From a virus: a stretch of 64,000 bases of DNA. A program made the position numbers and the translations under genes. The DNA is taken from positions 2,211 through 66,210 of the IMG/VR virus record IMGVR_UViG_3300016476_000893; one strand, 5' to 3'. Shown here piece by piece: positions 10,714 through 33,831 of the stretch (the stretch's first letter is position 1; every line of letters starts with the position of its first letter). Below the pieces are notes generated by a model. That model had not been told where the DNA came from, did no database searches, and saw nothing but the letters and a program-made list of their open reading frames with translations.

Positions 10714-11040
10714 ATGCCTGATTCTCTGATGCAAACTCCGGTATTGGCAGCTATAGTGGCTATAGTTGTCGCTTTTTCAAAAATAATCGAAGTAGTCCTT
10801 TCAAAAGCTCTTCCACAAAAATCTATACTAACGGATGTAGAGAGGGAGTGGCTAAAATCTATACACGAAGTACATGCCAGAACAGACCAAGATGGAACAC
10901 CTCTGGTTTATATGCCAAGAACTTTTCTTGAAATACAAAAAGAACTACAAAAATCTTTAATCCAAATAGTTAATGATCAAAGCAAGATAGCTTCTATTCT
11001 AGAAAGAATGGATAAAAGGTTAGAAAATTTAGACAAATAA
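10714..11040 (+). CDS. single-TM membrane protein with coiled-coil tail (holin-like)
   Basis: N-terminal hydrophobic helix PVLAAIVAIVVAFSKIIEVVL; heptad C-terminus IASILERMDKRLENLDK. Confidence 0.55.
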   Translation: MPDSLMQTPVLAAIVAIVVAFSKIIEVVLSKALPQKSILTDVEREWLKSIHEVHARTDQDGTPLVYMPRTFLEIQKELQKSLIQIVNDQSKIASILERMDKRLENLDK

Positions 11041-11050
11041 AGGGGGCTTT

Positions 11051-11257
11051 ATGGGTTCTGCAAAATTCAAAATAAATAAAGATGATTTAGCTAAGGTGTT
11101 AAAAAACTCTGCGCTTGTCGGTGCTGCTGCTGGAGTTACTTATCTATCTGCAAATTTTACAAAAATCGACATGGGCTTGTATGGAGCACTGCTTGTTCCT
11201 ATAATATCAACAGCACTTGACACTGTAATAAAGTGGTTAAAAGACAACACTAACTAA
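11051..11257 (+). CDS. small two-TM membrane protein (holin-like)
   Basis: 68 aa, two hydrophobic segments (ALVGAAAGVTYL; LYGALLVPIISTAL), charged termini. Confidence 0.6.
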   Translation: MGSAKFKINKDDLAKVLKNSALVGAAAGVTYLSANFTKIDMGLYGALLVPIISTALDTVIKWLKDNTN

Positions 11258-11273
11258 CAAATTGGAGTAGGAA

Positions 11274-11657
11274 ATGATTAATAGATTTTTAGGACTTTTG
11301 CCAATATTTTATTCTGCTTATCAATATTATGACTGGTATAATACTCCAGGCTTTAACCCGAATAATATCTTCTGGGTAAAGCTTGGAGTTTCTTTTGTTC
11401 TTGGTTTATTTATGTTAATTTTTTCTAACTATAAATATGTTTTAGACTACTTACAAAAAGTAAACTTTGTAAAGTCTTCATCTGTTGTTGAAAAAGTTGA
11501 TGTTGATAAAACAGAGCAAGAGAATCAGATCGATGAATATTATGATTTGAGATGTTTGCTACATTTACGGTCTAGAGTTACTGAGCTTTCTTCTGAAGAA
11601 GGTGTTCAAATAGTAACAAGATTAAATACAATATTATTCTCTAAAGGAAAGATTTAA
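11274..11657 (+). CDS. membrane protein
   Basis: Two N-terminal hydrophobic segments (FLGLLPIFYSAY; IFWVKLGVSFVLGLFMLIF). Confidence 0.65.
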   Translation: MINRFLGLLPIFYSAYQYYDWYNTPGFNPNNIFWVKLGVSFVLGLFMLIFSNYKYVLDYLQKVNFVKSSSVVEKVDVDKTEQENQIDEYYDLRCLLHLRSRVTELSSEEGVQIVTRLNTILFSKGKI

Positions 11658-12106
11658 TGGAGATTAAAAATATTCCACTAAAGCTATTATTGATGATGGC
11701 TTTTTTTGTCGGCTGCGAAAAACCAGTTGATAAAAATATTGATCAAGAAGAGTCAAGCTCAGAATCAGATTTTGTAATGACAAAAACTCTAAAAAGAGTT
11801 AAAGCTGAGTATGATTCAATGAGGGACAAAGATAAAGAAAATATATACAAGCAATTTTCTGGATCTTACTTATTTCTAAAAACCAACAAGTCTGTCAAAA
11901 AAACAAGTGACTTCGACCCAATTCTTGGAAGGGTCCAATCAGACTATGGGTGGAATAGAGAAAAATACCCAGAATTCACAGAGGCTGTATCTGACTTCTT
12001 GCTAGAACAAGGTTATGACGAGCCAAAAGTTTTGGATAATGACGAGGACAGAGAATGGTTCTGTCAGATTTTCTACTCACTATATATGGCTATAAAAAAT
12101 GAGTAA
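11657..12106 (+). CDS. putative lipoprotein
   Basis: Signal-like N-terminus KLLLMMAFFVG-C with lipobox-like Cys20. Confidence 0.6.
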   Translation: MEIKNIPLKLLLMMAFFVGCEKPVDKNIDQEESSSESDFVMTKTLKRVKAEYDSMRDKDKENIYKQFSGSYLFLKTNKSVKKTSDFDPILGRVQSDYGWNREKYPEFTEAVSDFLLEQGYDEPKVLDNDEDREWFCQIFYSLYMAIKNE

Positions 12107-14114
12107 TCAATATAACGGCTGGGTTGACGATCAGGGAAGTGTAGAATCTGTGATGCAGGAATTACCATTCCCAATTTTTGGCGATGTGTGGTCTCCAATT
12201 AAAGACTCTGGCAAGGGCAGGGTTGTACTATTGTACGAAATTGTCAAAAAGGTTGCTGGAAGCTTTCCTATTAGAACCCAATTGATTGGAGATTGTCAGC
12301 CTAAAGACACTCTTATTTTTGGTCCTGATTTTGTAAAAAAAATACAAGATATTAATATTGGGGATAGAGTTTATGCTGGAAATGGAGAGATTACAACCGT
12401 AATTTCTACTCTATGCAAACAATCAAATAACCCTATACTAACTATACACACAAAAGGGGGGCTTCCTCTCAAAGTAACGTCTGACCACAAGGTTTTAGCA
12501 TATCGCTTTGGTGAATTCGTAAATAGCAACAGTAAATGGCGAAGAAGGTATAGCCCAGGTCATCAACAAACATGTATAAATAATCGTGGAGTAGACACTA
12601 AACTTAAAGGAAATACTATTTTTGCAAATAGGGTTGCAGAATTAGTAAAATCCTCCGATCTTACAGAGGCGGATTATGTTTTATGTCCAATAAACATAGA
12701 AATTGATAACAAAATTCCTGATGATATGCTGCCTTACATGGGTGATAAGGAAGTCAGATGGATGATAGGTTTATTTTTGGGTGATGGCCACGCAAAAAAA
12801 ACAAGCAAAACTTTAGAGTGGGGTTGCACAACTGATGAACCCGACATAGAAGAAAGACTTTGCAAAGCTCTTGATATTTTAAATATAAAATGGAGATCGT
12901 ATTTTCATTGCAAAAGCAGCAACAAAGCTAGGAAAGTTTACACTCTAAAAACAGAAAATATTTTCAACTTATTTAAAAAATATTTCTATGATGATAATGG
13001 TAATAAAACTATTCCATCTTGGGCTATTAACGATGATGTCATTAGCGGATTATTAGATTCTGATGGTTACACATCAAGATCGTCTGGTAAAGCAAGGCAG
13101 GAATTTGAAAATACTAGCTTTTCTTTGGTTCATGGAGTTAGAATATGGGCTTTAAGAAACGGATATATACCAAGTCTCAATGAAAGACAAAGATTCGATA
13201 AAAGAACTAATAAATTAAACAAGAAGGTGTATAAAGTTTCTTGGTTAGTTGATAAAAGCTCTCGCAATCTATGGAAAGACGATCAGTATTTAGCAATGCC
13301 AATTGTTAAAATAGACGTAGAAGAGGGGCCGCATAATGAAGTTTATGACATCGGTGTAAAACACAATCTTCATACATTTATAACTGGTGCTGGCGTTTCA
13401 ATAAGCAACTGCGTATCTATGGGTGCCGCTTACGCAGTAGACGCTATCAAAGCTGTTGATATTTTCATTAAAAACGAAATGGAAGAATGGGTTGCTGAAA
13501 CTAGCACCGAAGATATATATGGTGGAAGTCGAGTGCAAATAGGCAAAGGTAGAATAGGCACTGGAGATGGATCGGTTGGTGCTTGGGCTGCTCAATATGT
13601 TAATAAATATGGAGCCTTGGCAAGACAGAAATATGGAAACATAGACTTAACGAAATATAATTCTAAAACAGCAAAAGCTTGGGGGATGCCTAGTAAAGGC
13701 GTTCCTCAAGAATTAATACCATTCTGCAAAGAGCATCCTGTAGAAGTCGTTTCTCAGGTATATACATACGCTGAAGTAAGAGACTTAATTGCTAACGGTT
13801 ACGCTGTAACAGTAGCTAGCTCTCAGGGTTTTTCTAGCAAAAGAGACTCAGAAGGTTTTGCTAGACCAGAAGGCACTTGGCAGCATCAAATGTCAATTCT
13901 AGGAGTTGATGACTCTTACAAGAGACCTGGTGTTTTAATACAAAATAGTTGGGGCGTTTGGAATAGCGGGCCTAAAAGACACAATCAGCCAGATGGATCG
14001 TTTTGGGTAGACGCTGACGTTTTAGAAAAAAGAATGTTGTCAAAAAAAGACTCTTGGGCATTTAGTGGTTATGGTGGATTTAAAGCTAGAAAACTAAACA
14101 CAAGGATATTCTAA
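12099..14114 (+). CDS. papain-like (C1/clan CA) cysteine peptidase containing an intein
   Basis: After removing the intein the extein reads TQLIGD-CVSMGAA (Q..GxC nucleophile), QHQMSILG (His) and LIQNSWG (Asn): a clan CA triad. Confidence 0.85.
   Translation: MSNQYNGWVDDQGSVESVMQELPFPIFGDVWSPIKDSGKGRVVLLYEIVKKVAGSFPIRTQLIGDCQPKDTLIFGPDFVKKIQDINIGDRVYAGNGEITTVISTLCKQSNNPILTIHTKGGLPLKVTSDHKVLAYRFGEFVNSNSKWRRRYSPGHQQTCINNRGVDTKLKGNTIFANRVAELVKSSDLTEADYVLCPINIEIDNKIPDDMLPYMGDKEVRWMIGLFLGDGHAKKTSKTLEWGCTTDEPDIEERLCKALDILNIKWRSYFHCKSSNKARKVYTLKTENIFNLFKKYFYDDNGNKTIPSWAINDDVISGLLDSDGYTSRSSGKARQEFENTSFSLVHGVRIWALRNGYIPSLNERQRFDKRTNKLNKKVYKVSWLVDKSSRNLWKDDQYLAMPIVKIDVEEGPHNEVYDIGVKHNLHTFITGAGVSISNCVSMGAAYAVDAIKAVDIFIKNEMEEWVAETSTEDIYGGSRVQIGKGRIGTGDGSVGAWAAQYVNKYGALARQKYGNIDLTKYNSKTAKAWGMPSKGVPQELIPFCKEHPVEVVSQVYTYAEVRDLIANGYAVTVASSQGFSSKRDSEGFARPEGTWQHQMSILGVDDSYKRPGVLIQNSWGVWNSGPKRHNQPDGSFWVDADVLEKRMLSKKDSWAFSGYGGFKARKLNTRIF
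12294..13409 (+). mobile_element. intein (372 aa) with LAGLIDADG homing endonuclease
   Basis: Block A CQPKDTLI, block B KVTSDHKV, MIGLFLGDG and ISGLLDSDG endonuclease motifs, block F EVYDIGV, C-terminus GVSISN followed by Cys+1 (13410-13412). Confidence 0.9.
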
Positions 14115-14689
14115 TGAATAATTTATTAATGATAGTATTTGTTTTCTTCATCTTTTTAATGCCAAACGGGTCTAAAGTTGTTGTGCCACAACCAGAAATA
14201 GATAAAGGTGAGGCCGAAGGTCTTGTTGCGTTCATAATAAACGATCAAGATGGTGGGCAGACAGACGATAATAAGGTTGAATGTCCTTGCGGAGGCAGTA
14301 AAAAAATAGTTCATGGCGATGGTCATGTTACTCCATGCCCATGCGATGTTTGCAACTGCGATCAAAAAAAAAGTAATGATGAACCACCCGTTCAAGAAGA
14401 ACCTGTTGCCTTAAACGAAAAATATTTAATAAATAAGTGGACGGCAACATGGTGCGCCCCATGTAAAACATGGGATAGGACTGAAAGACCTTTATTAGAA
14501 AAAGATGGCTATATAGTAGAAGAAATTGACTATGATGATAATAAAGACTTAGCAAGACGGACAGGGGTTTCATCGATTCCAACAATTTGGATAATTGACA
14601 AAGAAACAAAAGAAACCAAGCAATCTTTGGTGTATCCTACTTATAAGCAAGTGATTTCGGCTATTGAAAAACTTGAGAATGGAAATTAA
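14114..14689 (+). CDS. membrane-anchored/exported thioredoxin-like protein with Cys-rich linker
   Basis: Hydrophobic N-terminus; CPCGGSKKIVHGDGHVTPCPCDVCNC; WTATWCAPC active site; GVSSIPT cis-Pro loop. Confidence 0.82.
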   Translation: MNNLLMIVFVFFIFLMPNGSKVVVPQPEIDKGEAEGLVAFIINDQDGGQTDDNKVECPCGGSKKIVHGDGHVTPCPCDVCNCDQKKSNDEPPVQEEPVALNEKYLINKWTATWCAPCKTWDRTERPLLEKDGYIVEEIDYDDNKDLARRTGVSSIPTIWIIDKETKETKQSLVYPTYKQVISAIEKLENGN

Positions 14690-16515: not shown

Positions 16516-19275
16516 ATGAACGATTATTACTGGCTCAATGAAAATAGCAGGCTCTTTTTAAGTAGAGGTTATTTGTCTTCAGGAATGACACCAGAAGCTA
16601 GAATAAAAGAAATAGCTCAAAATGCTGAGAATATACTTTCAATAAAAGGTTTTGCTGAAAAATTTGAGAGATATATGGCAAAGGGTTTTTACTCTTTGTC
16701 AACTCCTGTGTGGTCTAATTTTGGAAATTCAAAAGGTCTTCCAGTTAGTTGTTTTGGTTCGTACATATCTGACAATATGGAGTCGATATTGTCAACAGTC
16801 TCTGAGGTCGGAATGATGTCAAAGATGGGCGGAGGAACTTCCGCCTATTTTGGAGATCTGCGACACAGGGGATCTATCATAGGTAAAGAATCCGAAAAAC
16901 GAGGCGAGTCTAGTGGCCCAGTGCATTTCATGGAGCTGTTTGACAAAGTTTCTGCTGTTGTGAGTCAAGGATCTACTCGCAGAGGGGCATTCGCAGCATA
17001 TTTGCCAATAGAACATAAAGACGCGGAAAGCTTCCTAAAAATACAAGCAAAAGGCAACCCAATACAAGACATGTCTTTCGGAGTTACAATAACTGATGAA
17101 TTCATGAACTCAATAATAAACGGTCATGAAGAAAATAGAAAATTGTGGGCCTCCATAATAAGAAAAAGATATGAAACTGGGTATCCATACATATTCTTCA
17201 CAGACACAGTAAATAAAAACGCTCCGCAGGTTTATAAAGACAAGAACTTAAAGATAAATGCGTCAAACCTTTGTGTCACTGGAGATCAAAGAGTTCCGTC
17301 TAATTATGGAATGTTGACAGCTAAGGAGCTTTATGAAATTGGCACAGAGTTAAATCTGTTTGATAATGATAAAATAGTAAAATCTTCTCCAATGAGATTA
17401 GTCGAAAAAGACGCTGATGTGTTTAAGATTACATTGGAAAATGGTATGACGCACACAATTACGTCATACCATAAAGTTTCTGTGTTTAATAAAACGTCTA
17501 AAGTAACAGAAGACATTGCTTGCAAAGATTTAAAAATTGGCGACTCCGTAGCTGTACAAACTAACAAGGGTATTTTTGGCGATAAAAATATGCCAAAGGA
17601 AGCCTTTCTACTTGGACTGTATCAAGCTGATGGAACACAATACAAAGATATTATAATGCTTGATTTGTGGCAGAACGATTTTGATCTTCTAGAAGAAGTG
17701 CAGTCGTACCACGATTATGTTTGCGATAAGTATAAAACTCAGGTTTCAACTTACAATGGAAGAACTTATGATAATCCTAAATTCCATGACTGTGTGGTGC
17801 AGGACGGGTCGCACTTGAAAAAGAGACTGGCTTCAAACGCTCTTAAAAAATCATTAAATTTTGAAAAGGGGTATGTTCCAGAATGGGTATGGTGCTCTGA
17901 TGAAGAAACTCAATGGCAGTACATTAGAGGTCTTTACTTTGCTGATGGAACGGCGTTTAAATCAACGTCTGGCGGTGAACCTATACAAATAGCATTAGCG
18001 TCTATTGACAGAGAATTTCTAAAAGAAATACAGCTAATTTTAGCAAATCTTGGAATGCAATCATCAATAAGAGTTCTAAGAAAAGAAGGTAAAAATTTAT
18101 TACCTAATGGTAGTGGTGGGTATTCATATTTTGATTCAAAAGAATGCTATCGACTTATTATTGGCAACAAAAACGACGCCATAATTTTTGAAAAGAACAC
18201 TGGGTTTTTAAGTAGAAAAAATGTTGACATAGACGATAGATTATATAGAGATAATACAAAGAAATTTTATAAAATCTCTTCTATAGAATATGTTGGCAAA
18301 GAAGATGTTTATTGTTGTACAGTCGAATCAGAAAATCATCATTGGATTTGCAACGGTGTTATTACACACAATTGCTCTGAAATAATGCTGTCTTCTGATA
18401 AAGATAACTCGTTTGTTTGTGTACTATCGTCTTTAAACTTAGTCCATTGGGACGAAATTATAAAGACCGATGCTATTGAAACAATGATCTACTTTTTAGA
18501 TGCTGTAAATGAAGAGTTCATACAGAAGGCAGAATCTATACCGTTCATGAGCAAGGCTTGTAATTTCGCTAGAAGTCAAAGAGCGCTCGGTATGGGCGTT
18601 TTAGGATGGCATAGTCTGTTACAATCGAAGATGATACCATTCGAGTCAATGAAAGCTAAATATTTAAATATTGAAATATGGGCCAATATTAGAAACAGAG
18701 CGGATTTAGCTACAAAATCATTGGCAAATAAATTTGGCGAGCCAGAGTTGTTAAAGGGTTATGGCATTCGTAATGTTACCACGTTAGCTGTAGCACCAAC
18801 AACATCAAGCTCATTTATATTGGGTCAAGTGAGTCAGTCAATAGAGCCTTTAAATTCTAATTATTTTGTTAACGCCTCTGCTAAAGGAAAGTTTCCATAT
18901 AAAAATGAATATTTAAAAAATCTTTTGTCGTCATATGGAAAAGATGATGATGCCACTTGGGATAGTATACTGATTAAGAGTGGGTCTGTTCAACATCTAG
19001 ACTTCTTAACTTCTGATGAAAAGATGGTGTTTAAGACCTTTAAAGAAATCTCTCAGCTTGAAATAATTATTCAAGCAGCTAATAGACAAAAGTATATAGA
19101 TCAAGCTCAGTCGCTAAATATTAACATACCTCCATCAGCACCTCCAAAAGATGTGAGCGAACTGCTTATAAACGGATGGAAGATGGGGATAAAAACATTC
19201 TATTACCAAAGAAGCGAAAATCCAGCACAAGAATTAGTAAGAAGTATATTAACATGTTCTTCATGTGAATCATAA
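16516..19275 (+). CDS. nrdA: ribonucleotide reductase class I alpha subunit with intein (no ATP cone)
   Basis: PVSCF, QGSTRRGA, ASNL-[intein]-CSEI, VAPTTSSS, KTFYY, C-terminal CSSCES; the N-terminus starts directly at the catalytic domain. Confidence 0.96.
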   Translation: MNDYYWLNENSRLFLSRGYLSSGMTPEARIKEIAQNAENILSIKGFAEKFERYMAKGFYSLSTPVWSNFGNSKGLPVSCFGSYISDNMESILSTVSEVGMMSKMGGGTSAYFGDLRHRGSIIGKESEKRGESSGPVHFMELFDKVSAVVSQGSTRRGAFAAYLPIEHKDAESFLKIQAKGNPIQDMSFGVTITDEFMNSIINGHEENRKLWASIIRKRYETGYPYIFFTDTVNKNAPQVYKDKNLKINASNLCVTGDQRVPSNYGMLTAKELYEIGTELNLFDNDKIVKSSPMRLVEKDADVFKITLENGMTHTITSYHKVSVFNKTSKVTEDIACKDLKIGDSVAVQTNKGIFGDKNMPKEAFLLGLYQADGTQYKDIIMLDLWQNDFDLLEEVQSYHDYVCDKYKTQVSTYNGRTYDNPKFHDCVVQDGSHLKKRLASNALKKSLNFEKGYVPEWVWCSDEETQWQYIRGLYFADGTAFKSTSGGEPIQIALASIDREFLKEIQLILANLGMQSSIRVLRKEGKNLLPNGSGGYSYFDSKECYRLIIGNKNDAIIFEKNTGFLSRKNVDIDDRLYRDNTKKFYKISSIEYVGKEDVYCCTVESENHHWICNGVITHNCSEIMLSSDKDNSFVCVLSSLNLVHWDEIIKTDAIETMIYFLDAVNEEFIQKAESIPFMSKACNFARSQRALGMGVLGWHSLLQSKMIPFESMKAKYLNIEIWANIRNRADLATKSLANKFGEPELLKGYGIRNVTTLAVAPTTSSSFILGQVSQSIEPLNSNYFVNASAKGKFPYKNEYLKNLLSSYGKDDDATWDSILIKSGSVQHLDFLTSDEKMVFKTFKEISQLEIIIQAANRQKYIDQAQSLNINIPPSAPPKDVSELLINGWKMGIKTFYYQRSENPAQELVRSILTCSSCES
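17272..18372 (+). mobile_element. intein (367 aa) with LAGLIDADG homing endonuclease in nrdA
   Basis: CVTGDQRV start, TITSYHKV block B, LLGLYQADG and IRGLYFADG, EDVYC, NGVITHN end, then Cys+1 of CSEI. Confidence 0.94.
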
Positions 19276-28279: not shown

Positions 28280-30118
28280 ATGTTAAGAAATCATTCACAT
28301 TACTCTCTTTTAATGTCAACTCAGAAACCAAAAGGCATTGCCGCGAAGTGTAAAAGTTTCGGCTATAGTCATGCTGGAATCTGTGATGTTGGTACTATAA
28401 GCGGTGTGGTGTCTTTTATTAAGGCTTGCAATGACAACAACCTAAAACCCATAATAGGTTCTGAAATAGTTTTAAAAGATGGATCTAGCCTGTCTTTGTT
28501 TTGCAAGAATAAAGATGCGTGGAATGACATGCTTGTTTTAATATCTAAATGCAATGATCCAGAAAATTATGATAATGGAGCTAAGATATCATTTGAAGAC
28601 CTTATAGCCACGATAAATACAAAGAATTTCATATGTGTTGATGGATATATCGGAAGCTTCTTGTGCTCTAAGATAGTTAATCAGCAATCATATGGGCTAA
28701 CATATCATGATATACACGACATATGGTGGGCAGAAAACACTGTTGACGGATCTAATAGTGGATATGATAAAGTAAAATCTCATATTCAGTATATGAAAAG
28801 TCTATTCAGTGATTCATATTTTATAGAACTTGAGCAATCAGAATCAGAATCTTTTCAAGTTAATAAGTTTTTATGTAAAATTCTTACAGACGTATGCTTG
28901 GAAATAGGATGTAAGATTATTCCAAATACATCTAGTTACTATTCTGATAGAAAAGACTCTTTAGACCATAGAGTTCTTTTATGCTCTAGATTAAAGACAA
29001 CTATAAAAAATCTTCAATCAAAAATTGAAGAGTCGTCGCAGTTTGATCTTTTGAAGTTTATCAGAAGCAATGATCATTATATCAAACAGGTAAATGAAAA
29101 TGACTTCGCAGACATATTATCTAAAATTGAAGACATAAACATACTGTCAAACCCAAGGCTTCCAAAATTTGATTGCCCAAATAACTATTCAGAAAATGAA
29201 TATTTGAAACAGTTATGTAGGGATGGCTGGAAGAGATTGATAAACACAGGAGTTGATAAATCTAAACACGAAGAATACAAAAATAGAGTGTTGTACGAGC
29301 TTGATGTAATTCAAGAAGCAAATCTTGCTGGATACTTTTTGATAGTTCAAGATTATGTAAATCATTTTAGAAACCTTGGATATCTTATTGGTCCTGGCCG
29401 TGGAAGCGGTGCCGGCTCTTTAGTTTGCTATCTGATTGGAATTACTCTTGTTGACCCAATTCCATACGGATTGTTGTTTGAGAGGTTTTACAATAAAGGG
29501 CGAAACACAAAAGATCATATTTCTTTACCAGATATCGACGTTGACTTTCCTCCATCTATTAGAGAAGATGTAATATCTTATATAAAAACGAAGTATAGCG
29601 AGGAAAGAGTTTGTCAGATGTTAACATTTGGTCGCCTACAAGGGAAGTCGATTCTTAAAGAGGTGTTAAGAGTTAATGAGAGTTGTTCTCCAGACCAAAT
29701 GAATAAAATTACTAAGTTCATACCAGACGAGGCCGAGATATCTGACCAACTTGAAAATATGGACCACCCATCTATACTAATGTGGTCACTCGAAAATATC
29801 AAAGAAAAGCTGTCAGACTATTGTTGGATTGATGAAGACGGTAATCTAAAAGGAGATTACGCAAAAGAATTTGAGCAAGCTATCAGACTTGAGGGCGTTT
29901 TTAAATCTCAAGGAAAACATGCTGCCGGAGTCGTTATATCATCAGAAAAACTTGACCAATCGTGCCCAATGGTAAAGGCGGCTAGAACTTCGGAAAAAAT
30001 AGCTGGAATGGAAATGGCCGATCTAGAAGCTATTGGTTGCGTGAAGTTTGATATTCTTGGAGTTTCAGTATTAGAAAAAGTTCAAATGACGTGCGATGGA
30101 GAACGGGATTATGAGTAG
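28280..30118 (+). CDS. dnaE: DNA polymerase III alpha, N-terminal half (PHP + palm/thumb)
   Basis: NHSHYSL, GRGSGAGSLV, FERF.N.GR, PDIDVDF, GKHAAGVVI, VKFDILG; stops about 17 aa after KFDILG. Confidence 0.93.
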   Translation: MLRNHSHYSLLMSTQKPKGIAAKCKSFGYSHAGICDVGTISGVVSFIKACNDNNLKPIIGSEIVLKDGSSLSLFCKNKDAWNDMLVLISKCNDPENYDNGAKISFEDLIATINTKNFICVDGYIGSFLCSKIVNQQSYGLTYHDIHDIWWAENTVDGSNSGYDKVKSHIQYMKSLFSDSYFIELEQSESESFQVNKFLCKILTDVCLEIGCKIIPNTSSYYSDRKDSLDHRVLLCSRLKTTIKNLQSKIEESSQFDLLKFIRSNDHYIKQVNENDFADILSKIEDINILSNPRLPKFDCPNNYSENEYLKQLCRDGWKRLINTGVDKSKHEEYKNRVLYELDVIQEANLAGYFLIVQDYVNHFRNLGYLIGPGRGSGAGSLVCYLIGITLVDPIPYGLLFERFYNKGRNTKDHISLPDIDVDFPPSIREDVISYIKTKYSEERVCQMLTFGRLQGKSILKEVLRVNESCSPDQMNKITKFIPDEAEISDQLENMDHPSILMWSLENIKEKLSDYCWIDEDGNLKGDYAKEFEQAIRLEGVFKSQGKHAAGVVISSEKLDQSCPMVKAARTSEKIAGMEMADLEAIGCVKFDILGVSVLEKVQMTCDGERDYE

Positions 30119-31616: not shown

Positions 31617-32315
31617 ATGAATTATCGCGATTTCATCTGCATCGATTTCGAGACCACTTCTAAATATTCTTCAACAACCCAACCAGTGCAGATTGCTGCT
31701 GTCGCCATTCATGGCAGAAAGTTGGAGATCAAACCTGGCACAGAGTTTCAGTCGCTAATAAGACCGATCTTCGATGAAGAGGAATGTAAGAGACTAAACT
31801 TAGATCCTCTAACTGATGACGCTATATCAAAACATGGCAAAACAAGAGAAATGTTGGAAAATGCACCAAGTCTTAAATCTGTTTGGCAGAATTTTACTCA
31901 ATACTGTAAGCAGTTTAATACGGGTACTAGCAATTTTACAGCACCAATTGCGACTGGATACAATATAAAAAACTTCGATATGCCAATAGTCCAAAGGATT
32001 TGTGCTTCAGAGCCATACAAATACGGACCAGTAAATAAAGAGGGAAAGCAGGATTTATTCAGTATCATTACAAGTGTGGATATGTTTGATTTCATGTTCG
32101 CGTTTTTTGAAAACAATCAAGAAGTAAACTCTTTAAGTGCGGACAATTTAATTCGTGGATATATGGGATACTCTAAAGGCACCGCTCACGATGCCATGTC
32201 TGACGTAATGATGACAGCGGAGCTATTTTGCAGAACAATGCATATGATGCGGAGAGTTATGTCAAAGAATGACCTAAAGGGCGCATTTGCAAGAAAGAAA
32301 AACTCTAATGAGTAA
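31617..32315 (+). CDS. dnaQ: DEDDh 3'-5' exonuclease (DnaQ/epsilon-like)
   Basis: ExoI IDFETT, ExoII GYNIKNFD, ExoIII AHDAMSD. Confidence 0.88.
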   Translation: MNYRDFICIDFETTSKYSSTTQPVQIAAVAIHGRKLEIKPGTEFQSLIRPIFDEEECKRLNLDPLTDDAISKHGKTREMLENAPSLKSVWQNFTQYCKQFNTGTSNFTAPIATGYNIKNFDMPIVQRICASEPYKYGPVNKEGKQDLFSIITSVDMFDFMFAFFENNQEVNSLSADNLIRGYMGYSKGTAHDAMSDVMMTAELFCRTMHMMRRVMSKNDLKGAFARKKNSNE

Positions 32316-33831
32316 TTTAGACATTATAAATTGCAATTACAATGATCCTTATGTCTGGGATATGATAGGCGACGGCAGAGTAAAAGGTTGTTTTCAGATT
32401 GAAAGTTTTTTAGGTAAAGATTGGTGTAAAAAGTTAAAACCTAGGAATATAAACGAGTTAGCTGACTTGATTTCACTGATTCGCCCAGGATGCTTGTCTA
32501 TGGCGCAGATCTATTGCGATAGAAGATCGAAAAAGGCTGAAATAGTAAGTCTTCATCCGCTAATAGACGATATTCTAAAAGACACGTTTGGTATCATTGT
32601 TTATCAAGAACAGTCCATGATGATTGCTCAAAAGTTGGCTGGATTCACTCTTGAGCAAGCTGATGATCTCAGAAAGGCGATTGGGAAGAAGAAAGCCGAC
32701 CTCATGAAGAAGGTTAGAACTCAATTCATTGTGGGATGTATTGCCAACAATGTTCCAGAGTCAAAGGCTATTGAAATATTTGACATTATCGAATTATCGA
32801 ATAGGTACTCTTTTAACAAATCACACGCCGTATGTTACGCATACAATTCATACTGGTCAGCTTATCTAAAATATCATAGACCAAGAAAGTTTTTAACAAA
32901 CTGGCTTAAATTGGCTTGTGAAAAGGTAGACCCAGACGTAGAGGTAAAAGAAAACGTAATGTCTGCAAAGTCTGACGGTATAGACGTTTTTGGCCCTCAT
33001 TATAAGTCGCTATCCGATGATTTCTTTTGGGACTCACAAAACAAAGGCGTGAGATTCGGAATATGCAATATCAAACATGTTGGCATGGTTCATTATGAAC
33101 AAGTGAAAAATATAATTTCTGAGTTAAAAGATCCTACATGGACTGAACTATGCCTCTCGCTTCTAGATGTTAACAAGAGGTCGATTGAAAACATGATATC
33201 CGTTGGAGTATTTTCTGGGCTAAAAAAGACTAGAACAGAAATGCTTCACGAGCATTCGTGTTTATTAAATTTAACAGAAAATGAGATTTTAGCACTTAAA
33301 ACGATCCTTGATAGAAACGCCCCAATAGTAGAAAATTTAAGAGCCTTTGTTTCTAAAGGAACTAAAAAAGACGGCGGTTTAATATCGACGAAAGGTAGAC
33401 TGTCTAAGATTGAAGATATAATAACGAGAATGTTAAACCCTGGTAGATGTCTTAAAGATAACCCTTCGGTATATTCTAGGTTAGAGTCTGACTTATTGGG
33501 ATGTTCTATATATCATTCAGAACTATCATCATCGGCAGACGCTGTATATGCTAATACGACCTGTTCAGAAATAGCTGACGGCAAATTGTCTAAATCGACA
33601 CTAGCGGCTATAATAAAAAGGATAAGGGTCCATAGAACTAAGAAAGGCGATGACATGTGTTTTCTAACAATAGAAGATAATTCTGGAGAATTAGAAAATG
33701 TTGTTATTTTCACTGAGTTGTATGGCCAAAACAAAGATATAATTTATCAGGATTCAACTGTCTTGATAACTGGCGAAATAAAGGACAAGGAAAGAAGATC
33801 TTTCATAGTCGAGAGTATCTTTCAAATATAG
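32308..33831 (+). CDS. dnaE: DNA polymerase III alpha, C-terminal half (fingers, HhH, OB)
   Basis: GCFQIES, LISLIRPG, FGIIVYQEQ, ADDLRKAIGKKK, YSFNKSHA, OB fold TKKGDDMCFLTIED; ATG 32308 overlaps the dnaQ stop. Confidence 0.93.
   Translation: MSNLDIINCNYNDPYVWDMIGDGRVKGCFQIESFLGKDWCKKLKPRNINELADLISLIRPGCLSMAQIYCDRRSKKAEIVSLHPLIDDILKDTFGIIVYQEQSMMIAQKLAGFTLEQADDLRKAIGKKKADLMKKVRTQFIVGCIANNVPESKAIEIFDIIELSNRYSFNKSHAVCYAYNSYWSAYLKYHRPRKFLTNWLKLACEKVDPDVEVKENVMSAKSDGIDVFGPHYKSLSDDFFWDSQNKGVRFGICNIKHVGMVHYEQVKNIISELKDPTWTELCLSLLDVNKRSIENMISVGVFSGLKKTRTEMLHEHSCLLNLTENEILALKTILDRNAPIVENLRAFVSKGTKKDGGLISTKGRLSKIEDIITRMLNPGRCLKDNPSVYSRLESDLLGCSIYHSELSSSADAVYANTTCSEIADGKLSKSTLAAIIKRIRVHRTKKGDDMCFLTIEDNSGELENVVIFTELYGQNKDIIYQDSTVLITGEIKDKERRSFIVESIFQI

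Follow-up and report, generated by a model that had tools for sequence, protein, structure and literature searches.

A mobile class-1 intein at the predicted catalytic cysteine of a C1-like phage peptidase

Introduction

Inteins are known mainly from enzymes of replication, repair and nucleotide metabolism, and they habitually occupy active sites. The closest solved counterparts of the element described here are the VMA1-type class-1 inteins (TliVMA, PDB 7qsu and 7qss; PhoVMA, 7qst; PI-SceI, 1vde) and PI-PkoII (2cw7), in which a HINT fold carries an inserted two-motif LAGLIDADG endonuclease and whose hosts are a V-ATPase or a DNA polymerase. Here we report an intein of the same architecture in a 64,000-nucleotide stretch of viral DNA, referred to below as the window (IMG/VR record IMGVR_UViG_3300016476_000893, positions 2,211 to 66,210 of that record). 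It lies in an open reading frame (ORF) at 12099–14114 on the plus strand, and interrupts a peptidase directly before its predicted catalytic cysteine. The window's intein has Cys1, the Thr-x-x-His motif, the terminal Asn and Cys+1 in common with the solved inteins, at a sequence identity of only 16–20%. It differs from them in its host, a phage C1-like peptidase, and in a penultimate residue that is Ser or Lys throughout its lineage.

Two further groups invite comparison. Mycobacteriophage class-1 inteins without the penultimate His are, like the present one, phage-borne, mobile and sporadic, and compensation by the block F His has been proposed for them as it is here (PMC5050341). Their hosts are terminases, helicases, nucleotidyltransferases, RDF and others, whereas the host here is a C1-like peptidase. 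On the host side, the relevant enzymes are the bacterial C1A peptidases xylellain of Xylella fastidiosa (3ois) and Lpg2622 of Legionella (6a0n), which share with the phage protein the papain fold, the Gln-Cys-His-Asn order and the Asn-Ser-Trp-Gly motif; in all of these proteins a short N-terminal segment replaces a long propeptide. The identity to xylellain is only 17%, and the spacing from Gln to Cys is one residue shorter in the phage peptidase. Unlike the bacterial C1A peptidases, it is phage-encoded, has no signal peptide, belongs to a cassette that includes an anchored thioredoxin and lies beyond the reach of the Pfam C1 model.

In the literature searched, which did not cover InBase, a C1 peptidase is nowhere named as the host of an intein. 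A survey of prokaryotic inteins has no papain-type peptidase among its named hosts (PMC4760082), and neither the mycobacteriophage survey (PMC5050341) nor a 2025 survey of actinobacteriophages (10.1101/2025.01.02.630785) mentions a peptidase or protease host.

Results and discussion

Natural intein-free alleles fix the bounds of the insert

The ORF at 12099–14114 is open and its product is a 671-residue precursor (P0001) made of three parts:

12099..12293, plus strand: N-extein, 65 aa, with a prosegment-like N-terminus and the oxyanion-hole Gln61 (12279–12281); its last residues are Gly-Asp.
12294..13409, plus strand: 372-aa class-1 intein bearing a LAGLIDADG homing endonuclease; Cys1 at 12294–12296, terminal Asn at 13407–13409, penultimate Ser.
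13410..14114, plus strand: C-extein, 234 aa and the stop codon; predicted catalytic Cys at 13410–13412, His at 13884–13886, Asn-Ser-Trp-Gly at 13944–13955.

The insert comprises precursor residues 66–437, between Asp65 and Cys438; it begins with Cys-Gln-Pro-Lys and ends with Ser-Ile-Ser-Asn. Cys438, the +1 residue of the precursor, is Cys66 in the numbering of the spliced 299-residue protein. With the C-terminal 234 residues as query we retrieved 546 relatives, nearly all of 295–302 aa, the best of them 98% and 93% identical. Aligned with P0001, the intein-free homologues of this length show one clean gap, residues 66–437, exactly at Asp65/Cys438 (a slash marks the point of insertion), and the Gly-Asp/Cys-Val-Ser junction is present in every aligned homologue. 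The same holds in DNA: one intein-free allele (L002) is 97.3% identical to the window's 900-nt spliced gene and matches both flanks of the junction, and another (L001) is 80% identical and syntenic with the window over more than 11 kb.

Removal of the insert thus yields an uninterrupted homologue, and intein-free alleles of 299 aa occur naturally. Because these alleles share the junction and its flanks, the bounds 12294–13409 and the length of 372 aa are exact. The initial annotation, drawn from the letters of the DNA, had placed a 372-aa LAGLIDADG intein at these positions and suggested that intein-free alleles be sought in related phage contigs; such alleles do exist, and together with the domain match and the fold they bear the assignment out. 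The natural intein-free protein P0002 (98% identical) served below as a stand-in for the window's exact spliced protein.

The insert has the hallmarks of a canonical class-1 intein and of a LAGLIDADG endonuclease

The intein has the following landmarks, whose conservation was followed in its lineage and in 33 inteins at the same insertion point (site a, defined below):

12477..12488, plus strand: intein block B, Thr-Ser-Asp-His (TSDH); intein Thr62, Asp64 and His65 are invariant in the 33 site-a inteins.
12765..12791, plus strand: first LAGLIDADG motif, IGLFLGDGH; kept by 90% or more of the lineage, with invariant Gly residues.
13041..13067, plus strand: second LAGLIDADG motif, ISGLLDSDG; conserved in the lineage.
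13338..13379, plus strand: intein block F, EVYDIGVKHNLHTF; holds an Asp and a His able to replace the missing penultimate His (PMC5050341).
13389..13412, plus strand: intein block G and the +1 residue, AGVSISN/C; the lineage always ends in Ser-Asn or Lys-Asn.

The class-1 splicing residues Cys66 (intein Cys1), Asn437 and Cys438 (+1) are all present in the precursor and invariant in the 33 site-a inteins, and block B contributes its Thr-x-x-His and block F its Asp and His. The sole departure from the set is the penultimate residue, which is Ser436 and not His. This Ser-Asn ending had been read from the DNA before and is confirmed in the translation; a penultimate His is usual in class-1 inteins, not obligatory. 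The two LAGLIDADG motifs (GLFLGDG and GLLDSDG) keep their acidic residues. In Pfam, the insert matches LAGLIDADG_3 (PF14528) above threshold with an E value of 1e-7, and Intein_splicing and Hint below threshold. A profile of the 33 site-a inteins matches PI-SceI with an E value of 1.4e-21; its further matches are PI-PkoII, VMA inteins and numerous mini-inteins.

The fold agrees. Against the AlphaFold model of the intein (pLDDT 94.9), TliVMA scores Z 26.7 across 310 residues, PI-PkoII Z 25.9 and PI-SceI Z 20; the last two also match its endonuclease, which has the double alpha-beta-beta-alpha-beta-beta-alpha core. Mini-inteins and the hedgehog Hint domain score Z 17–18, as befits a HINT fold. 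The insert is thus a class-1 intein of the canonical kind that bears a LAGLIDADG endonuclease, from which we infer that it would splice and cut.

The spliced protein is predicted to be a distant C1-like peptidase

Profile comparisons and a predicted structure support placing the spliced protein on a distant C1-like branch of the papain family (clan CA), with putative proteolytic activity. A profile of close relatives (A2) gave no match among PDB sequences. A wider profile (A3), built from 92 diverse intein-free members, matches xylellain (3ois) with an E value of 1.2e-4 over residues 57–286, followed by cathepsin K, caricain and further C1 peptidases. In the alignment with xylellain, Gln-x-x-Gly-Asp-Cys falls on the Gln and Cys of the enzyme, the His pairs with the catalytic His, and the two Asn-Ser-Trp-Gly motifs coincide.

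The model of P0002 (pLDDT 94.8, pTM 0.93) has the two-domain papain fold of clan CA, and its central helix, residues 66–86, begins at Cys66. Foldseek searches with this model against PDB, Swiss-Prot and viral libraries returned only C1 peptidases in the top ranks (probability 1.00). VIA-align gave Z 23.6 with xylellain (rmsd 2.9 Å, 238 residues) and Z 18–21 with procathepsins, cathepsins and propapain, and the nearest ESM Atlas clusters are phage C1 peptidases. Gln61, Cys66, His224 and Asn244 (spliced numbering) follow one another in the C1 order and are invariant in 48 close relatives; the His lies in TWQHQMSIL (13884–13886) and the Asn in IQNSWGV (13944–13946), both downstream of the intein. 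The initial annotation had taken Cys+1 for the nucleophile of a papain-type triad completed by HQMSILG and IQNSWG, and the A3 alignment, the model and the Foldseek and VIA-align comparisons all agree with that prediction.

The spliced-type extein has no Pfam match to C1 above threshold: the curated C1 model PF00112 reaches neither the C-extein nor the intein-free allele. Within the family, PF00112 matches 10 of 92 members (E up to 0.01) and PF13529 matches 5 of 92. Because the curated model does not reach the protein, we call it C1-like and not C1. A tblastn search of the INPHARED phage collection gave no match.

Residues 1–40 of the P0002 model (window 12099–12218) overlay the last part of the prosegment of xylellain, procathepsins and propapain, so that the enzyme, even once spliced, may inhibit itself until this segment moves or is cut.

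Inteins occupy five points beside the three catalytic residues

An exhaustive search (E up to 0.001) places the peptidase in a family of 1,649 clusters at 50% identity. Among the 150 best representatives, 42 clusters (~28%) have one or two large inserts, and about 10 of the 78 related loci in IMG/VR carry an intein. The inserts fall at five points:

Site a, Asp65/Cys66: 33 clusters, including mini-inteins of 126–190 aa.
Site b1, His224/Cys225: about ten clusters.
Site b2, three residues past b1: P0125.
Site c1, Asn244/Ser245: P0212 and P0256; the inserts end Gly-Gln.
Site c2, after Asn-Ser-Trp-Gly: P0162 and P0177.

Each of these points is at most three residues away from the Cys, His or Asn of the triad, and the inserts at b1, b2, c1 and c2 have intein and LAGLIDADG signatures as well. 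Six family members of 816–1207 aa (P0158, P0162, P0164, P0177, P0210 and P0266) carry two inserts each, combining site a with site b or site c. The c1 inteins (P0212, P0256) and the c2 inteins (P0162, P0177) are related, and their points of insertion lie three residues apart around the catalytic Asn. Gln is a rare C-terminal residue for inteins; the c1 copies end in Gly-Gln, not in Asn.

A protease family without annotation in Pfam, PHROGs or NCBIfam is thereby revealed as a major intein host, with five insertion points beside all three catalytic residues. It offers a clean natural example of inteins homing to active sites, repeated three times within a single enzyme. What is new to the literature searched is the host; the intein as such is ordinary. 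The earlier view that a C1 peptidase is an unusual intein host accordingly holds for that literature, where no paper names one and neither host nor site is catalogued as a common allele; it does not hold for metagenomes, where both are common.

The intein behaves like an optional, horizontally moving element

Used alone as query, the intein retrieved 26 proteins, of which 24 were parsed. All 24 carry it at the Gly-Asp/Cys site, most are 651–760 aa long, and their inteins end in Ser-Asn or Lys-Asn and never in His-Asn. Between P0001 and some of its partners the intein is 63–72% identical where the extein is 31–42% identical (for instance, 72% against 31%). An intein that is more conserved than its extein points to horizontal copying between diverged alleles by homing. 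In the syntenic relative L001, neither this intein nor that of the large subunit of ribonucleotide reductase (RNR), described below, is present.

The intein lineage has open frames from 95% down to 44% identity. Closer to the window, the intein-bearing allele is in frame in contigs of four sequencing runs from four freshwater and riverine studies, at 93–100% identity. Third codon positions account for 11 of the 16 differences listed for the intein and for all 16 of those listed for the C-extein, a tally that covers only the listed part of the differences and is an indication, not a measurement. We conclude that the intein behaves like an optional, horizontally moving element of the selfish type and not like a built-in switch.

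A contig from run X9 (93% identical) has compensating one-base deletion/insertion pairs in the C-extein at 13673/13678 and 13721/13727. The paired indels are 5–6 nt apart, keep the frame and change two short stretches of residues.

The peptidase sits in a conserved cassette with a possible envelope role

The genes around the peptidase are as follows:

10714..11657, plus strand: three small membrane-protein genes (108, 68 and 127 aa) with hydrophobic segments and no family matches.
11657..12106, plus strand: 149-aa protein encoded upstream, with a lipoprotein-type signal (FFVGC); the last 8 nt of its gene overlap the peptidase start; a conserved neighbour.
14114..14689, plus strand: signal-anchored thioredoxin-like protein (WCAPC) with a Cys-rich segment and a hydrophobic N-terminal anchor; a conserved downstream neighbour.

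We compared window 10714–14689 with 78 IMG/VR loci (L009–L086). A hydrophobic N-terminus is present in 54 of 65 genes upstream of the peptidase and in 57 of 77 genes downstream, and 40 of those 77 downstream genes have WCxxC, whether or not the intein is present. The order of membrane proteins, a ~150-aa signal or lipoprotein protein, peptidase and anchored thioredoxin is kept to ~33–50% identity. The thioredoxin-like gene also adjoins the intein-free alleles L001, L002 and L005, so we regard it as a partner of the peptidase cassette and not of the intein. Its hydrophobic anchor leads us to expect the thioredoxin-like protein to act outside the cytoplasm, away from the precursor.

A holin–endolysin-type cassette would place a cytoplasmic lytic enzyme beside small membrane proteins, in a genome with no other lysin. 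Here membrane proteins lie upstream of an enzyme without a signal peptide, but the position of the genes is atypical of late genes. Phage proteins in BFVD with the same C1-like fold (A0A6J5MXS7, A0A8S5PQA2, A0A8S5SPG9 and A0A0F6YQN9) are named as peptidoglycan-binding, N-acetylmuramidase, copper amine oxidase (wall-binding domain) or Lysin A, which hints at a C1-like fold fused to cell-wall modules. We tentatively propose that the cassette serves in host envelope attack or lysis, a role we hold to be possible and a little short of probable. The thioredoxin would then keep the catalytic Cys reduced, or open disulfides in the targets of the peptidase, and this widespread peptidase–thioredoxin cassette may be a non-canonical lysis module that opens the host envelope in a new manner.

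The less likely alternative is that the peptidase is a cytoplasmic protease used in host takeover or in virion maturation, or else a clan CA hydrolase without proteolytic activity, and that its membrane and thioredoxin neighbours are coincidental. Such a protein could do without a signal peptide, would fit a gene inside a nucleotide-metabolism and replication block, and would resemble the nearest solved relatives, which are general endopeptidases. Coincidence is hard to reconcile with an order of partner, peptidase and anchored thioredoxin that persists to ~33–50% identity, or with the 8-nt overlap between the partner gene and the peptidase start. The endolysin searches also speak against it. 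PF00959, PF01510, PF01464, PF13539, PF01551, PF08291 and PF00877 were not found in the relatives G001–G004, and searches with PF00182 and PF05838 were uninformative, as their controls matched nothing in any genome. The 98%-complete, 162.7-kb relative G001 matches none of these nine endolysin families, two of them being those with silent controls.

A bolder extension of the envelope role, which we consider rather improbable, is that peptidase, signal-bearing partner and anchored thioredoxin make up an undescribed system by which freshwater and marine phages attack the envelope or lyse the host, and in which the kinetics of splicing set the earliest lysis. As mobile inteins target the three triad residues, splicing would in that case determine when lysis could first start in intein carriers, and a selfish element would have been drawn into lysis timing.

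A search of genome contigs with profile A2 found homologues in isolates of Bacteroidota and in Planctomycetota metagenome-assembled genomes; the loci are L094 and L095 (Mucilaginibacter), L092 (Balneolaceae) and L090, L093, L096 and L098 (Planctomycetota). The chromosomal context in Mucilaginibacter, with glycosyltransferases and a polysaccharide deacetylase, gives no clear functional clue.

A proposed route of splicing and spread

We consider it likely that a C1-like peptidase, from a large family of uncultured phages that lacks annotation, has been invaded, at the codon of its catalytic Cys, by a mobile class-1 intein that splices after translation, in a cassette for which an envelope role is the favoured one. 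By this route, Cys66 of the precursor would undergo an N-S acyl shift and Cys438 would accept the N-extein by trans-thioesterification. Asn437 would then cyclise, probably with the assistance of the block F His, since the penultimate residue is Ser. A final S-N shift would leave the 299-aa peptidase, with the former +1 Cys as nucleophile beside Gln61, His224 and Asn244. The LAGLIDADG endonuclease would cut intein-free alleles of co-infecting relatives, into which the intein would be copied.

Since the +1 Cys is the predicted nucleophile, the unspliced precursor should be inactive, as the initial annotation had reasoned. We take this inactivity to be a by-product of the insertion site and not a dedicated device of control. 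The precursor would nevertheless be a ready-made zymogen, without protease action before splicing, and could find use in the design of intein-controlled enzymes.

Several observations weigh against one part or another of this explanation. Pfam, PHROG and NCBIfam searches with the C-extein, the N-extein and the intein-free alleles gave no significant peptidase match. The contigs of the four runs hold only the intein-bearing form, with no spliced-site joints, and contigs are unable to show the coexistence of the two alleles within a population. For a role in lysis in particular, the failure to find nine Pfam families does not prove that an endolysin is absent, and the cassette lies in a plus-strand block with RNR, PhoH, helicase and polymerase, not after late genes. 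In addition, the homologue of M. gilvus follows GT87, GT2 and polysaccharide deacetylase genes with no evident prophage.

Is the intein a timer or a redox switch?

The initial annotation had raised the prospect that splicing acts as a timer or as a redox or metal switch. The intein would be an adaptive control that keeps a dangerous protease off until it splices; redox state, metal ions or the neighbouring thioredoxin would tune the splicing, with the penultimate Ser as a slow timer. The chemistry allows for this, as Cys1 and Cys+1 are both cysteines and a disulfide trap is possible, and redox-dependent splicing is known in other inteins (PMC7765530). The two cysteines are necessary for redox-controlled splicing, not sufficient. 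The conservation of a penultimate Ser or Lys throughout the lineage and the adjacent thioredoxin-like gene also accord with a switch.

The distribution of the intein does not. It is missing from a 97% identical allele, most members of the family do without it, and it spreads horizontally; such a sporadic distribution argues against an intein maintained as a regulator. Nor is the link to thioredoxin supported, because the thioredoxin-like protein is signal- or membrane-anchored and thus expected outside the cytoplasm in which the precursor is made, and its gene is found equally beside intein-free alleles. The notion that the penultimate Ser slows splicing fares no better. That Ser is a trait of the lineage, and in phage class-1 inteins the penultimate His is often replaced by Gly, Lys or Ser, its role being one that the block F His is proposed to take over (PMC5050341); such a His is present here. 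Splicing was not slowed in the case tested: in that one intein, Kelley et al. 2016 found that changing Gly to His made splicing slower (PMC5050341). Nothing observed here calls for a regulatory role. We therefore regard a regulatory switch as improbable, and favour a mobile intein whose insertion inactivates the precursor incidentally.

It is more improbable still that the intein no longer splices and the allele is a dead peptidase gene carried along, for although the penultimate His is absent and the Intein_splicing match stays under the Pfam threshold, every other splicing residue is present and invariant or nearly so, from Cys1 and the block B Thr-x-x-His to the Asp and His of block F, the last Asn and Cys+1, the frame is intact in four runs of four studies with mostly third-position differences, and the lineage keeps open frames from 95% to 44% identity.

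A second intein and other features of the window

The window encodes a class I RNR large subunit (16516–19275, 919 aa) with a second LAGLIDADG intein of 367 aa, at about 17272–18372. Its point of insertion, Asn-Leu/Cys-Ser-Glu-Ile, immediately precedes the active-site Cys, and its last residues are His-Asn; the RNR large subunit of L001 is an intein-free 552-aa form. Both inteins of the window thus precede a catalytic Cys, bear LAGLIDADG motifs and are absent from L001. The RNR intein differs from the peptidase intein in its His-Asn end and in its classical nucleotide-metabolism host. We considered that the peptidase intein might be a duplicate of the RNR intein and rejected this, as the two are unrelated in sequence.

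The source record is a 69.4-kb IMG/VR fragment, estimated to be 46% complete, and freshwater and riverine metagenomes make up the runs in which it occurs. The structural genes of the window have no PHROG matches. A DnaE-type polymerase is split into two ORFs, 28280–30118 and 32287–33831, which lie ~2.2 kb apart with a minus-strand gene between them and match the two halves of phrog_405.

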